A stretch of 64,000 nt of DNA from an uncultured Synergistaceae bacterium. Its GTDB lineage: Bacteria; Synergistota; Synergistia; Synergistales; Aminobacteriaceae. The notes beneath the pieces are model-generated. The model was not told the DNA's origin and did not search any database. It saw only the letters and a program-made list of their open reading frames with translations. The stretch's first letter is position 1; each line of letters begins with the position of its first letter. The position numbers and the translations under genes were made by a program. Below, piece after piece: positions 53,457 to 57,296 of the stretch. The stretch is taken from assembly GCA_964543785.1 (NCBI GenBank), contig CAZJAR010000001.1, forward strand, positions 4,909 to 68,908. Direction: 5' to 3'.

Positions 53457-54807
53457 TTCTCCTTTCCTTGTCTGCCCTTCCGAGGGTCAGCGCCGTCCGG
53501 GCTCCTCCTCCGGGAAGGTTCCCGGCACTGAAAGTTCCCCCGTGATTGTGAACTACCATAGTAACGTATTGCAGTCCAAGGCCGGTCGAATTCCAGCCCG
53601 AACCTGATTTCCATTCCGGCGGAAAGCCGGGCCCCTCATCGGAGACGGCAAGGGTGACCTTGTCATCGTCCATGGATACGGACAGGGTGATCGTTCCTCC
53701 CCCTGTCTGGAGGTTTGCTTTCCTCGCGTTGTCGAGAAGGTTCACCATGGCCCTTGAGAAGCGGACCACGTTCACTTTCACCGTTTCCTTCAGCACCTGC
53801 CTGTCTCCCTCCAGTACCACAGTCTCCCGCCATGGGAACGGGCTGATCTGGGTGAAAACGTATTCCACAAGATCCCCTATGGAAACGGGCCTCCGGAAAT
53901 CCTCGTGGAGAATCTCTGAAACCATCTCCTCCATGGACCGGGCTGCCTCGCAGATGACGGCACCGTACTTCCCCGCGTTCCCCTCTCCCCTGCCGGAGAC
54001 TATGACATCCCCGAGACCGAGAATGGTGGTGAGGGGCCGCTTCAGATCATGAACGAGCTGCTGCATTTCCACAAGGCTCCGGTTGCTCAGGCTCTCCTCC
54101 CTCAGGCGCGACATCTTGTTCTCCCTGTCCCTGAGAAGGGCCATGTCGTTCAGCCTTGCGCTGTAGGTTACCATCAGCTCGGTTGTGAGGACGCCGGAAA
54201 AAAAGAGACCGGCAAAGACCGCGCTTCCCGACCAGTTGAGAAGACCCTCCCTTTCAAGTATCCCTGCCGCCGTTTTCACGGAGGTTGAGAGTTCCCCCCA
54301 CCCTGCTCCCCAGGCAGTCAGGGAGGGGATGATGTCCAGCCATTGAAAGGAAAAGACGAAAAGGGCCAGTGCAATGGACTTGTAGACCCAGTCGGAGATG
54401 CTCCTTGTCAGGTAGCGGAGCACGAGGACGCTGCCCACGCTGAGAATGGCGGGGATGCCGAAATGGAGCTGGATTCCTTCGCCCAGGACAGGAGGAAGAA
54501 AATAGGTGAGGGGTATGGCGACCGCAGGAGCCAGCCAGGAGAGGAAGGAGAGGCCTGGATGCAGCCCAGCAAGGCCGTTTCCCGCGAGGAACCAGCCAAG
54601 GTAGAGGGCGATTGCACGAATCCCGTTCAGCATGACTACCAGTGCCGCTGCCGTCAGAAGATCGCCGCTGTCCATGGTCTCCGGGATTCGGGCGATAGCG
54701 GCGAGGAATGGAGCTGTGGATATCTGCTGCGCCGCTGTCCAGAGAAAAAGGAAGAACAGGGCAAAGGCCAGGTGTTTCTGAGATTGGCTGCGGCTCACTG
54801 TTCCCAT
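53425..54807 (-). CDS. Membrane-integral sensor histidine kinase
   Basis: Multiple N-terminal TMs; H-box VHDLKRPL, N-box NLLDNA, G1 DEGPG, G2 GLGL. Confidence 0.9.
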   Translation of the reverse strand: MGTVSRSQSQKHLAFALFFLFLWTAAQQISTAPFLAAIARIPETMDSGDLLTAAALVVMLNGIRAIALYLGWFLAGNGLAGLHPGLSFLSWLAPAVAIPLTYFLPPVLGEGIQLHFGIPAILSVGSVLVLRYLTRSISDWVYKSIALALFVFSFQWLDIIPSLTAWGAGWGELSTSVKTAAGILEREGLLNWSGSAVFAGLFFSGVLTTELMVTYSARLNDMALLRDRENKMSRLREESLSNRSLVEMQQLVHDLKRPLTTILGLGDVIVSGRGEGNAGKYGAVICEAARSMEEMVSEILHEDFRRPVSIGDLVEYVFTQISPFPWRETVVLEGDRQVLKETVKVNVVRFSRAMVNLLDNARKANLQTGGGTITLSVSMDDDKVTLAVSDEGPGFPPEWKSGSGWNSTGLGLQYVTMVVHNHGGTFSAGNLPGGGARTALTLGRADKERRSDDAASYRCN

Positions 54808-55847
54808 CGGTCCCATCTCCTGTAAAAAAGAAGAAAAATAAAGAAAAAGATCAACCCTGCAGTGCACATCAGGGTGCTCCGGGGGGTTGTAAACCGTGGG
54901 GCCCGGCTTCCGTCAAAGGGAATCCCCGCATCCAGGGCCATATTCTTCATGTTAAGAAAATGGAGCACCGGAATACCTTCCTTCAGGGCACGCTGGAGAA
55001 CACCGTTCCCGGGAGGCACGGTTCCTTCCGGCGCGGGAACAAAAAAACCTCCCCGGAGAAACTCCGACTCGTTGCCGGCAAAAGTCGCCGCGCCTCCTCC
55101 GACACTCACGAGCAGGCGAGGGGCATATTCGGAAATTAGCCTTGTCTTTAAAGTGATCATTTCCTGGAGAGATCCGGCCCTCAGGAAAGGAACCCCTTCC
55201 TCCATGGCCGCATTTCTCAGGAGTGCCCGCCCCTCCTCCGACAGGTCGAGCCCCATCTCTCCCCTTCCGCCGAGGGTATACCAGTCCGCCTTCCCGGAGA
55301 GGAAGCCCCCCTGACGAAGAGCGCCGGCCATGGCTGGCCATGGAAATGAAGGGTTGTTGGCTCCCCAGGTGGAGGCGCCAAGTGAATGGATCCACAGGAT
55401 GTCAGCCCCCAGGAACTCCCCTGCGGCAAGGATAGAATACAAAAGCCCCGGGAAGGAGGATGAGGAAAGCACTGCCACGGGGTCTCCCTCGCCTATTCCC
55501 AGGGAACGGAAGCGCCGGAGGGCATAGACAGCCCACAGGGGATCGGCAGCGGTCCGCTTCGCCTGGAGGGGGCCGAGAGTCGTGGTTATGCTGCTCCACT
55601 CCACTCCGATGAAGCCCGTTCTCTGAGGGTCGATTTCCTCTCCGGGATTCATTTCCCGGCTCTGCCTCCATCGGAAAAGATAGTCCTGGGCATCACGGAC
55701 CTTGTTCCAGAGCACCTTTTCGTCGCCGACAAGGGTGCTCACGGCGCCGAAAAACCACGCAGCTCCCAGGACCAGGGCAAGAAGGACGAGCTTCAGTCTC
55801 GCCTTCAAAAGAAAGGCACGCTGGACCCGGATACGGGGTGTTTTCAC
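54795..55847 (-). CDS. Poly-gamma-glutamate system membrane protein (PgsW/TIGR04332-like)
   Basis: N- and C-terminal TMs; FIGVEWSSITTTLG, SSSFPG, LGASTWGAN; GTGA overlap with pgsC. Confidence 0.75.
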   Translation of the reverse strand: MKTPRIRVQRAFLLKARLKLVLLALVLGAAWFFGAVSTLVGDEKVLWNKVRDAQDYLFRWRQSREMNPGEEIDPQRTGFIGVEWSSITTTLGPLQAKRTAADPLWAVYALRRFRSLGIGEGDPVAVLSSSSFPGLLYSILAAGEFLGADILWIHSLGASTWGANNPSFPWPAMAGALRQGGFLSGKADWYTLGGRGEMGLDLSEEGRALLRNAAMEEGVPFLRAGSLQEMITLKTRLISEYAPRLLVSVGGGAATFAGNESEFLRGGFFVPAPEGTVPPGNGVLQRALKEGIPVLHFLNMKNMALDAGIPFDGSRAPRFTTPRSTLMCTAGLIFFFIFLLFYRRWDRWEQ

Positions 55848-56302
55848 GGCAGGCCTCCGGAAAAGGAAAGGAGAAGAGCCGCTCCAAGGGAAGCGGCAAA
55901 GGCTGCCGAAAGAGACGCGGCGACCGTGGGAACGATTCCCTGGCGCTGCATGTCTGCGCCAATGAGACCGGGAATGACCCATCCAATCCAGGCGGGGGCC
56001 GAGGGGAGATAGCTTCCAAGAAGAACCTTCAGACCGAGGGCGAGGAGCATGGCCGCCCCGGTCCTCTGGCGCCCGTAGATTCCCGTTCTCCGGACAAGAA
56101 GGGAGAGAACAAGGGCAACTGCGGCTGCGCAGGCAAAGACTGCCGCCGTTCGTGCCGGGGAAGCCAGTTCCATGGCAAGAAAACCGGGGGTGATGATGCC
56201 TCCGGGAGAATATCCCGTCCGGTGAAATAAAAACAGTCCAAGAGCGATTCCAAGGGCAATCAGGAACACATCGGCGTCATTCACCGGCTTTTTCCTCCCC
56301 AT
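55844..56302 (-). CDS. pgsC: Poly-gamma-glutamate biosynthesis protein CapC/PgsC
   Basis: TGYSPGGIITPGFLA, IYGRQR, IGWVIPGLIGADMQRQG; start 56302 or GTG 56284. Confidence 0.88.
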   Translation of the reverse strand: MGRKKPVNDADVFLIALGIALGLFLFHRTGYSPGGIITPGFLAMELASPARTAAVFACAAAVALVLSLLVRRTGIYGRQRTGAAMLLALGLKVLLGSYLPSAPAWIGWVIPGLIGADMQRQGIVPTVAASLSAAFAASLGAALLLSFSGGLP

Positions 56303-57296
56303 CCGTTCTTCCCGCCCTCTCAAGCAGGAATTCCAGCGGCACACCTGCCACATTCCCGCATCCAAAAACCTTCCCTTCCGAAGCGACGAAAGCGCAAAGT
56401 TCCCCGGAATTCTGAAGAGGAAGAAACGCCGCACCGGACGGCAGAAAAAGAGGGCGGCTTCCCGTTACGGCCACTCTCTTCCAGGAATGGCCCGAAAGCC
56501 ATGGCAGAAAGGAGCGAAGCCTCGCGACACGGTCCTTTCTCGAGTTGTAGAGTACCGTGGTCTCCTTCCTCTCCCATCCGGTCAACTGGAACAGGCTTTC
56601 CGTTGATTCGGGATCGTTGGCGGAAAAGGCCGAGGCAAGTTTCCCCTCTCCCTCGCTGAAGACACGGAAATCGGCAATATCCGGCGGCAGATCCCGGGCG
56701 GCCTCAAGGGCATTTCGCCCGTCAAGCCCAAGAAAAGAGCAGACCCCGGAGACAAGGGAAAAATGGGTTTCCCTGAAATCTGCGCCGTCGGGGCAGAAAA
56801 AAAGTTCGCACCCCTTCATTCCGAGTATGCGGGATACTGCCGGGACAGCTGCAACGGAACAGGGAAGGATCACCGGCCCACCGTCTATTCCTCCGCAGAG
56901 GGCTGCGGCAGCCATCTCCTCGCCGTGGCCCCAGACTTCCTCGTGATCGGGACGGACATTGGTCAGCACGGTGCAGGAAGGCTTCATCCACCGCCATGCG
57001 AGGCCCTGCAGCTCCGGGTCCACGGCACTGTTTTCAAGAACCGCTCCCTTCATTCCCCCTGGCAGGGAACGGAGCCACCACCGCATTTCCTCTACGCTGC
57101 CGGGGCCGGAGCGGAGAATGAGCGTCTCCTTCCCCCGGATTATCTCCCGGGGAAGAACGCCGGTAATTCTTCCGGCTGCGGAAACTCCCGCCCCCTCGAG
57201 AGCCGCCGTGAGAAGGCGGACAAGGGAGCTCTTTCCCCTGCTCCCAGTGACGAGAATCCTGATGGGGATGTGATCAGCCGCCCCGCTGAAAAGCAT
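56277..57296 (-). CDS. pgsB: Poly-gamma-glutamate synthase CapB/PgsB-like (Mur-ligase fold), divergent
   Basis: TGSRGKSS P-loop, ENSAVDPELQ, TNVRPDHEEVWG, AFSANDPEST, NSRKDR. Confidence 0.82.
   Translation of the reverse strand: MLFSGAADHIPIRILVTGSRGKSSLVRLLTAALEGAGVSAAGRITGVLPREIIRGKETLILRSGPGSVEEMRWWLRSLPGGMKGAVLENSAVDPELQGLAWRWMKPSCTVLTNVRPDHEEVWGHGEEMAAAALCGGIDGGPVILPCSVAAVPAVSRILGMKGCELFFCPDGADFRETHFSLVSGVCSFLGLDGRNALEAARDLPPDIADFRVFSEGEGKLASAFSANDPESTESLFQLTGWERKETTVLYNSRKDRVARLRSFLPWLSGHSWKRVAVTGSRPLFLPSGAAFLPLQNSGELCAFVASEGKVFGCGNVAGVPLEFLLERAGRTDGEEKAGE

Follow-up and report, generated by a model that had tools for sequence, protein, structure and literature searches.

In Bacillus, the loci for poly-gamma-glutamate (PGA), known as pgsBCA(E) and in B. 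anthracis as capBCADE, link genes of synthesis to genes of degradation, including that of CapD, an enzyme of the gamma-glutamyltransferase (GGT) family. In B. subtilis, PgsBC still produces PGA without PgsA, with an altered D/L content (PMC6029982). According to a CapsuleFinder survey, in which CapB and CapC are mandatory and CapA and CapE accessory components, PGA systems are especially abundant in Synergistetes and Fusobacteria (PMC5542703). A 2025 preprint presents an operon of CapB, CapC and "PgsF", a name met in this preprint only, as the typical layout of Gram-negative PGA producers (10.1101/2025.11.11.687785). Here, we analyze a PGA-type cassette of three genes, pgsB, pgsC and pgsW, together with its neighbors in a 64-kb stretch of DNA (the window) from an uncultured Synergistaceae bacterium (GCA_964543785.1, contig CAZJAR010000001.1, positions 4,909 to 68,908). 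We consider it reasonably probable that the three genes represent a divergent form of the catalogued pgsB-pgsC-pgsW poly-gamma-glutamate system and that this system operates by the mechanism of synthesis, trimming and re-uptake proposed below.

A described locus of this type is found in Cetobacterium somerae (NZ_CP143320.1, locus L082), where the NCBI annotation gives the symbol pgsW to the gene of the TIGR04332 protein that follows pgsB and pgsC, i.e., pgsW is the official label for this protein. The gene order is ggt, DUF6305, TRAP large permease, a 47-amino-acid (aa) open reading frame (ORF), succinylglutamate desuccinylase, pgsB, pgsC and pgsW. All eight genes have homologues in the window (26-57% identity) and the three pgs genes are in the same order, but in the window ggt is found beside the cassette, deoC is inserted, and a histidine kinase-response regulator (HK-RR) gene pair is located downstream. 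In a protein search, the Cetobacterium PgsW matched Fusobacterium sp. MFO224 and PH5-44 and no named F. nucleatum, which to our knowledge is the one Gram-negative PGA producer shown by experiment.

Like the window cassette, the capBCA locus of Francisella is a three-gene CapB/CapC cassette with a third protein, in this case called "CapA". This protein is listed as "poly-gamma-glutamate system protein", which is the product name of TIGR04332 (PMC5362203), and by this shared annotation Francisella capBCA is of the pgsBCW type. A review describes the locus as required for virulence; the widespread pgsW-type system carries the same annotation as a virulence and vaccine-attenuation locus. Francisella is an intracellular pathogen, whereas the host of the window is an amino-acid-fermenting, Aminivibrio-like member of the Synergistota of bioreactors and anaerobic digesters. 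Literature searches for PgsW and TIGR04332 returned nothing relevant beyond the Francisella annotation, and no assigned role for PgsW was found in them.

The cassette is located at 54795-57296 of the window, where a preliminary description had placed a PGA-type system and where the ORFs are confirmed on the minus strand:

56277-57296, minus strand: pgsB-like gene of an ATP-dependent amide ligase, 339 aa, without N-terminal membrane anchor (longest possible ORF, TIGR04012, fold model)
55844-56284 (ORF 55844-56434), minus strand: pgsC/capC, membrane subunit, about 146 aa (PF14102, TIGR04011, ribosome-binding site)
54795-55847, minus strand: pgsW, "poly-gamma-glutamate system protein", 350 aa (TIGR04332, two transmembrane (TM) helices)

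The E-values of the family matches of these three genes are far beyond chance. PgsW aligns to positions 28-305 of the 307 of TIGR04332 with 294.4 bits (cutoff 100, E 9.4e-88). PgsC passes the Pfam model CapC, PF14102 (92.6 bits, cutoff 27), and for PgsB the top NCBIfam model is TIGR04012 PgsB (E 5.7e-28). The profile check suggested in the preliminary description was therefore borne out for PgsW, while the other two proteins fall below the equivalog cutoffs (97.7 of 222.7 bits for PgsB against TIGR04012 and 70.6 of 96.45 bits for PgsC against TIGR04011). What places the cassette in the system with TIGR04332 as its context is the combination of a PgsW above the cutoff, a pgsC immediately upstream on the same strand, an adjacent pgsB and the absence of CapA from the cassette. 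The traits of a canonical Bacillus synthetase, i.e., PgsB and PgsC at equivalog level, an N-terminally anchored PgsB and a CapA (PGA_cap) or CapE, are lacking in the window, and the envelope is diderm. The cassette is not a new kind of system, but a catalogued and widespread type in double-membraned bacteria.

In PgsB, the P-loop (GSRGKS) begins at residue 18, the N-terminus is not hydrophobic, and the sole hydrophobic window is internal (residues 142-160). Because the 339-aa frame is the maximal ORF and deoC ends 17 nt upstream, there is no space for an N-terminal TM helix, in agreement with the preliminary description. In B. anthracis CapB, by comparison, the P-loop is found at residue 105, behind a strongly hydrophobic segment beginning at residue 66, and the 376-aa PgsB of Cetobacterium has a hydrophobic N-terminus. 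Among the best 120 homologues of the window PgsB, the P-loop is found at residues 5-33 in 111, at residues 42 and 55 in two, and is missing from seven, six of which start directly after it. With the P-loop so close to the N-terminus in 111 of these 120 sequences, the anchor-less PgsB is, as judged from the sequences, a clade-wide trait; these homologues are found in Synergistota, in Xanthomonadales/Lysobacterales-type Gammaproteobacteria and in Dethiosulfatarculus.

An alignment of eight sequences (A2), which includes B. anthracis CapB, Cetobacterium PgsB and the window PgsB, confirms the motif differences noted in the preliminary description: CapB has GKTTG and ECMA, Cetobacterium PgsB KVTG and ECMA, and the window PgsB GRITG and ENSA. 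The residues that are invariant in all eight are kept in the window, i.e., the P-loop, T45, G46, E88, A91, N113, D117-H118, N227-D228, N251, R253, D255-R256 and G314-N315. In tblastn searches, almost the entire window PgsB was matched by residues 95-442 of CapB (26% identity, E 4e-16) and by residues 13-372 of Cetobacterium PgsB (26% identity, E 3e-29). A PDB sequence search with PgsB gave no significant match. The AlphaFold2 (AF2) model of PgsB (pLDDT 91.5) shows a two-domain amide-ligase fold like that of MurC, MurF, FPGS and CphA1, and the P-loop chemistry, too, is common to PgsB, the Mur ligases, FPGS/FolC and the M domain of cyanophycin synthetase. The model begins at the ATPase domain, and the N-terminal domain with which Mur and FolC enzymes bind their nucleotide-sugar or pterin substrate is absent. 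The PgsB-family scores, the near-full-length alignments and the fold together indicate a PgsB-clade member of the Mur-ligase superfamily rather than a Mur or FolC enzyme.

The PgsC subunit is 31% identical to B. anthracis CapC (E 5e-10), with which it has two (I/V)PG motifs in common. Its probable start is GTG 56284, preceded at 8 nt by GGAGG, and the first 8 nt of the gene coincide with the end of pgsB; an alternative start is ATG 56302. The pgsW gene starts at GTG 55847, with GGAGG in front; this start codon and the pgsC stop codon overlap in the sequence GTGA.

As described previously, PgsW is a two-TM protein in which hydrophobic helices at about residues 18-36 and 324-342 flank a soluble domain of about 285 residues. 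It is 30% identical to Cetobacterium PgsW, and the strictly conserved positions of the family alignment are found in EWSxxTTTLGxxxAKRT, SSSSFPG, SLGxSTWGAN and a C-terminal RRW. Clustered at 50% identity, the family comprises 1260 representatives (E <= 1e-3) in many phyla, with named members that include Firmicutes, Rhodospirillales and Bacteroidota. With this number of clusters, the product name in Francisella and a PgsB that lacks its anchor throughout the clade, the term "non-canonical", in the sense of unusual, does not apply to the cassette. The AF2 model of PgsW (pLDDT 86, pTM 0.83) is composed of alpha/beta units. Searches with PgsW yielded no Pfam domain up to E 5 and no significant PDB match by sequence, and no solved structure resembling it was seen among the PDB matches. 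Foldseek matches to generic Rossmann-like structures in the PDB (TM-score below 0.3) were dismissed as uninformative.

The N-terminus of PgsW, MKTPRIRVQRAFLLKARLK, is strongly positive, and a tandem PgsW-PgsW protein (P0395, 721 aa) has the pattern TM-domain-TM-TM-domain-TM. Together with variants that have three TM helices, these features suggest that the large domain of PgsW is outside the cytoplasm and that both termini are cytoplasmic. In the three-TM variants (P0284, 671 aa, and P0387, 683 aa), the third helix is accompanied by an additional domain of about 280 residues at the C-terminus, which has no Pfam or NCBIfam match. In two 424-aa proteins of Bacteroidota (P0383 and P0400), PgsC (residues 7-131) is fused to the PgsW soluble domain (residues 144-407) without a C-terminal TM helix; in P0383 (TIGR04011 113.7 bits, TIGR04332 285.8 bits) the place of the first helix of PgsW is taken by the last helix of PgsC. 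This natural fusion argues for a physical PgsC-PgsW unit.

The preliminary description had proposed that PgsW replaces CapA/CapE in export across a diderm envelope. A comparison of the PgsW and CapA profiles (hhalign) gave a probability of 0.3%, i.e., the two are not homologous, but a CapA-like partner role is reasonable because PgsW combines a membrane anchor with a large soluble domain and occurs fused to PgsC. Export across the whole envelope is not supported: the helices of PgsW are of the inner-membrane type only, there is no outer-membrane component in the locus, and the signal peptides of three neighboring proteins, i.e., GGT, an AstE-like hydrolase and a DUF6305 protein, point to a periplasmic product. 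The further suggestion of a different product length or stereochemistry goes beyond the sequence evidence. The absence of CapA and CapE holds for the window, in which tblastn with the B. anthracis pXO2 proteins (locus L081) found nothing significant (best E 0.12 for CapA and 4.2 for CapE), and for 80 related loci with a total of 944 kb, in which there was no match at E <= 0.01; the window itself covers 64 kb of the genome, and an absence genome-wide is beyond its reach. The related loci were obtained by a genome scan with narrow PgsW motifs (SLG[AS]STWGA and similar), whose hits were mainly in Synergistota and Gammaproteobacteria, with none in Francisella.

Genes that the preliminary description had not covered are found on both sides of the cassette, i.e., conserved genes for GGT, a zinc hydrolase and a transporter upstream and an overlapping two-component system downstream. 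In transcriptional order these neighbors are:

62528-63079, minus strand: secreted DUF6305 protein with a signal peptide ending ALA/AD (PF19823 162.9 bits; 43% identity to the Cetobacterium gene)
61219-62508, minus strand: DctM-like (TRAP large-subunit-like) permease (PF06808 45 bits; 55% identity to the Cetobacterium gene)
61063-61209, minus strand: conserved membrane protein, 48 aa (57% identity to the 47-aa Cetobacterium ORF in the same position)
59916-61049, minus strand: zinc hydrolase of the AstE/AspA family with a signal peptide or anchor at the N-terminus (PF24827 37.6 bits, cutoff 25)
58096-59892, minus strand: secreted GGT (TIGR00066 514.8 bits, cutoff 357.85)
57314-58000, minus strand: deoC, deoxyribose-phosphate aldolase, between ggt and pgsB (TIGR00126 271 bits)
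53425-54807, minus strand: sensor histidine kinase, multi-TM in its N-terminal part (HisKA and HATPase_c domains)
52794-53456, minus strand: response regulator with a DpiA/CitB-like helix-turn-helix domain (Response_reg 68 bits, HTH_64 27.4 bits, synteny)

Eleven genes, with DUF6305 first, the response regulator last and the cassette in the order pgsB, pgsC, pgsW between deoC and the kinase gene, are on one strand with intergenic gaps of -32 to 95 nt, and the cassette is probably part of a single operon. A promoter-like site is found upstream of DUF6305 (63158-63131, minus strand) and, 3' of the response regulator gene, a hairpin with a T-rich tract behind it, while overlaps of 8, 4, 13 and 32 nt together with GGAGG sites indicate translational coupling. 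The kinase gene starts at ATG 54807 (AGGAG 9 nt before), shares 13 nt with the end of pgsW and is itself overlapped at its end by the response regulator gene. Metatranscriptome contigs with at least 99% identity cover, at low depth, parts of pgsB, pgsC and pgsW as well as the pgsC-pgsW and deoC-pgsB junctions, the latter by a contig at 57238-57475; the depth is greater over ggt and DUF6305 than over the pgs genes.

Conservation of the neighborhood was counted in 57 related loci with a full upstream flank. Here, pgsC adjoins pgsW in all 57 and pgsB is found in 56; the AstE-like hydrolase is encoded in 42, the DctM-like permease in 40, the 48-aa protein in 36 and GGT, no more than 7 kb upstream of pgsW, in 41. 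This core is shared by loci of Fusobacteriota, Synergistota, Gammaproteobacteria and Desulfobacterota, and the counted loci include SAR324. In contrast to the core, the HK-RR pair 3' of pgsW (20 of 47 Synergistota loci and none of 14 loci of other phyla) is specific to Synergistota among the loci compared, and deoC, found in its place in seven of 43 Synergistota loci, is a lineage-specific insertion into the locus.

The GGT is 45% identical to the product of the Cetobacterium-locus ggt and 31% identical to CapD (E 5e-66); it corresponds to CapD and to Ggt of B. subtilis. Its probable start is ATG 59841, with which the signal peptide ends in AFA/A. The AstE-like hydrolase has the motifs HPTE and DLHE and a hydrophobic segment at residues 8-26, and is 51% identical to the Cetobacterium "succinylglutamate desuccinylase" that adjoins pgsB. 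A gamma-Glu-Glu unit is an N-acyl-glutamate, as is the substrate of AstE, and the protein is a candidate gamma-glutamyl (N-acyl-glutamate) hydrolase; a zinc-dependent, carboxypeptidase-like PGA hydrolase is known in PghP (PMC4497714). The window locus is like the Bacillus-type loci in that synthesis genes are linked to degradation genes.

The transporter genes (61063-63079, minus strand) comprise a DctM-like permease without a DctP or DctQ gene, flanked by the DUF6305 and 48-aa protein genes. The DUF6305 protein is possibly the solute-binding partner of the permease, and the three proteins may constitute an undescribed transporter architecture, which adjoins pgs cassettes across several phyla.

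The mechanism that we propose for the system is as follows. The soluble, anchor-less PgsB would dock on the polytopic PgsC, or on the PgsC-PgsW unit, and add glutamate via gamma-amide bonds. PgsC and PgsW would form the membrane part, in which PgsW, with its large domain in the periplasm and both termini in the cytoplasm, would fill the place of the unrelated CapA/PgsA of Bacillus and receive or release the chain at the outer face of the inner membrane. In the periplasm, the secreted GGT would process the product at its N-terminal end or by a CapD-like transpeptidation, while the AstE-like zinc hydrolase would attack the C-terminal N-acyl-glutamate bond. Glutamate or gamma-glutamyl peptides could then be re-imported by the DctM-like permease with the DUF6305 and 48-aa proteins, and the overlapping histidine kinase and response regulator may control expression of the locus. 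Precedents for parts of it are PgsBC of B. subtilis, active without PgsA, the hydrolase PghP and the GGT-family enzyme CapD. Gene identities and order, overlaps, conservation, the PgsC-PgsW fusion and in situ transcription are observed here; the topology and role of PgsW, the hydrolase and permease substrates and the nature of the product are what we infer in this scheme.

A more specific proposal, made tentatively and on balance doubtful, is that pgsBCW provides the synthesis in a periplasmic cycle of a gamma-glutamyl polymer, a cycle that is conserved and self-contained in diderms and in which PgsW stands in for CapA, the GGT and the AstE-like hydrolase trim both ends, a DctM importer of a new type returns the products and, in Synergistota, a two-component system exerts control; the polymer would be a buffer of glutamate, nitrogen or cations and not a capsule. 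If true, this proposal would suggest a function for the enigmatic capBCA locus of Francisella. The interest of the locus is mostly in the conserved neighborhood of synthesis, trimming and uptake genes and in PgsW as a structural orphan. The window is a clean, non-pathogen example with the full conserved neighborhood, which puts in place of a vague "capsule gene" label a pathway that can be tested, from synthesis through trimming to re-uptake. Systems of this type from anaerobic digesters may, in addition, be worth considering as sources of PGA-like polymers.

Several points weigh against the assignment to a pgsBCW system with such a pathway. The literature searched shows no product and no biochemical data for any pgsW-type system, and since PgsB and PgsC are below the equivalog cutoffs, the substrate or the product could differ. 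The activity of PgsW is a guess, given that no fold relative is recognizable, and the evidence for its topology consists of the positive-inside rule and the domain arrangements. About one-quarter of the loci are without the GGT, AstE-like and DctM-like genes, and the metatranscriptome runs, of low depth over the cassette, may carry DNA. The link to Francisella capBCA is one of product name, made here without a sequence alignment, and in Francisella capB and capC are reported to be dispensable for the capsule, the function of the locus being called unknown (PMC4688374). The retention of capsule in these mutants is also in favor of the main rival explanation, which we regard as rather unlikely: no long, free PGA is made, and one or a few gamma-glutamyl residues are instead added to an acceptor in the envelope (a peptidoglycan stem, lipid, lipoprotein or polysaccharide), or short periplasmic oligomers are formed, with PgsW as an acceptor-specific transferase or scaffold and GGT as transpeptidase. 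The sub-equivalog scores of PgsB and PgsC fit this explanation as well, the Ser/Thr-rich conserved motifs of PgsW (EWSxxTTTLG, SSSSFPG, SLGASTWGAN) suit an enzyme better than a passive part of a channel, and the cassette-linked GGT belongs to the family of the anchoring transpeptidase CapD. However, PgsB retains all residues common to the polymer-forming CapB/PgsB proteins, the two exo-type hydrolase candidates and the importer fit polymer turnover better than they fit a single decoration, and the three-gene order is taken in the preprint as typical of Gram-negative PGA producers (10.1101/2025.11.11.687785).

Two further explanations concern the identity of the components. That PgsW is a mere accessory, and the synthetase is completed by a canonical CapA/CapE encoded elsewhere, gains some room from a view limited to 64 kb of the genome, but it is very improbable: neither the window nor the 944 kb around related cassettes contains a CapA or CapE match, and pgsW is adjacent to and translationally coupled with pgsC, is fused to it in some lineages and defines the system in NCBIfam. 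The 339-aa protein could also be a Mur-, FolC- or cyanophycin-type ligase unrelated to glutamate polymers, with the adjacency to capC being incidental. In Pfam, it is indeed matched by Mur_ligase_M alone (23 bits, cutoff 24), and the top Foldseek matches of the model in the PDB are MurC, MurF, FPGS and CphA1 (TMq 0.58-0.67, 10-16% identity), with no PgsB structure among the matches listed. The scores for TIGR04012 and for the MurD model (16.9 bits, cutoff 211.95, E 2.6e-3) are nonetheless more than twenty orders of magnitude apart in E-value, the alignments to CapB and Cetobacterium PgsB are near full length, the N-terminal Mur substrate domain is absent and pgsC and pgsW are invariably adjacent, which makes this explanation scarcely credible; a grouping of PgsB with FolC or Mur ligases, named in the preliminary description as a possible refutation, was not found by profiles or alignments. 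Assignment of the cassette to the pgsB-pgsC-pgsW system remains the reading that we favor.

Other observations concern the composition of related loci and the surroundings of the cassette. One metagenome-assembled genome of a Synergistaceae bacterium harbors two pgsB-pgsC-pgsW-HK-RR cassettes (L001, JAHDKT010000056.1, and L007, JAHDKT010000067.1), one with and the other without the GGT, AstE-like and DctM-like genes. In 11 gammaproteobacterial (Lysobacterales-type) loci, a gene for a 355-aa protein that resembles glutamate racemase and has a hydrophobic N-terminus is found between ggt and pgsC (e.g., L016:5370-6437, TIGR00067 61.9 bits, under the cutoff of 146.65; also in L015, L018, L019, L021-L023, L043, L051, L072 and L078). 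Its presence there counts in favor of the main reading; the window contains no such gene. A homologue of the LarA-family (nickel-pincer cofactor) racemases is located 3' of the response regulator in the window and in six related loci. The genes at this end of the window locus, the last two of them just outside it, are:

51545-52891, minus strand: LarA-family racemase homologue (best 236.6 bits against a cutoff of 540, below all subfamily cutoffs)
50750-51493, plus strand: family-3 amino-acid solute-binding protein
48884-50188, minus strand: pyridoxal-phosphate-dependent decarboxylase of the ornithine/diaminopimelate/arginine family

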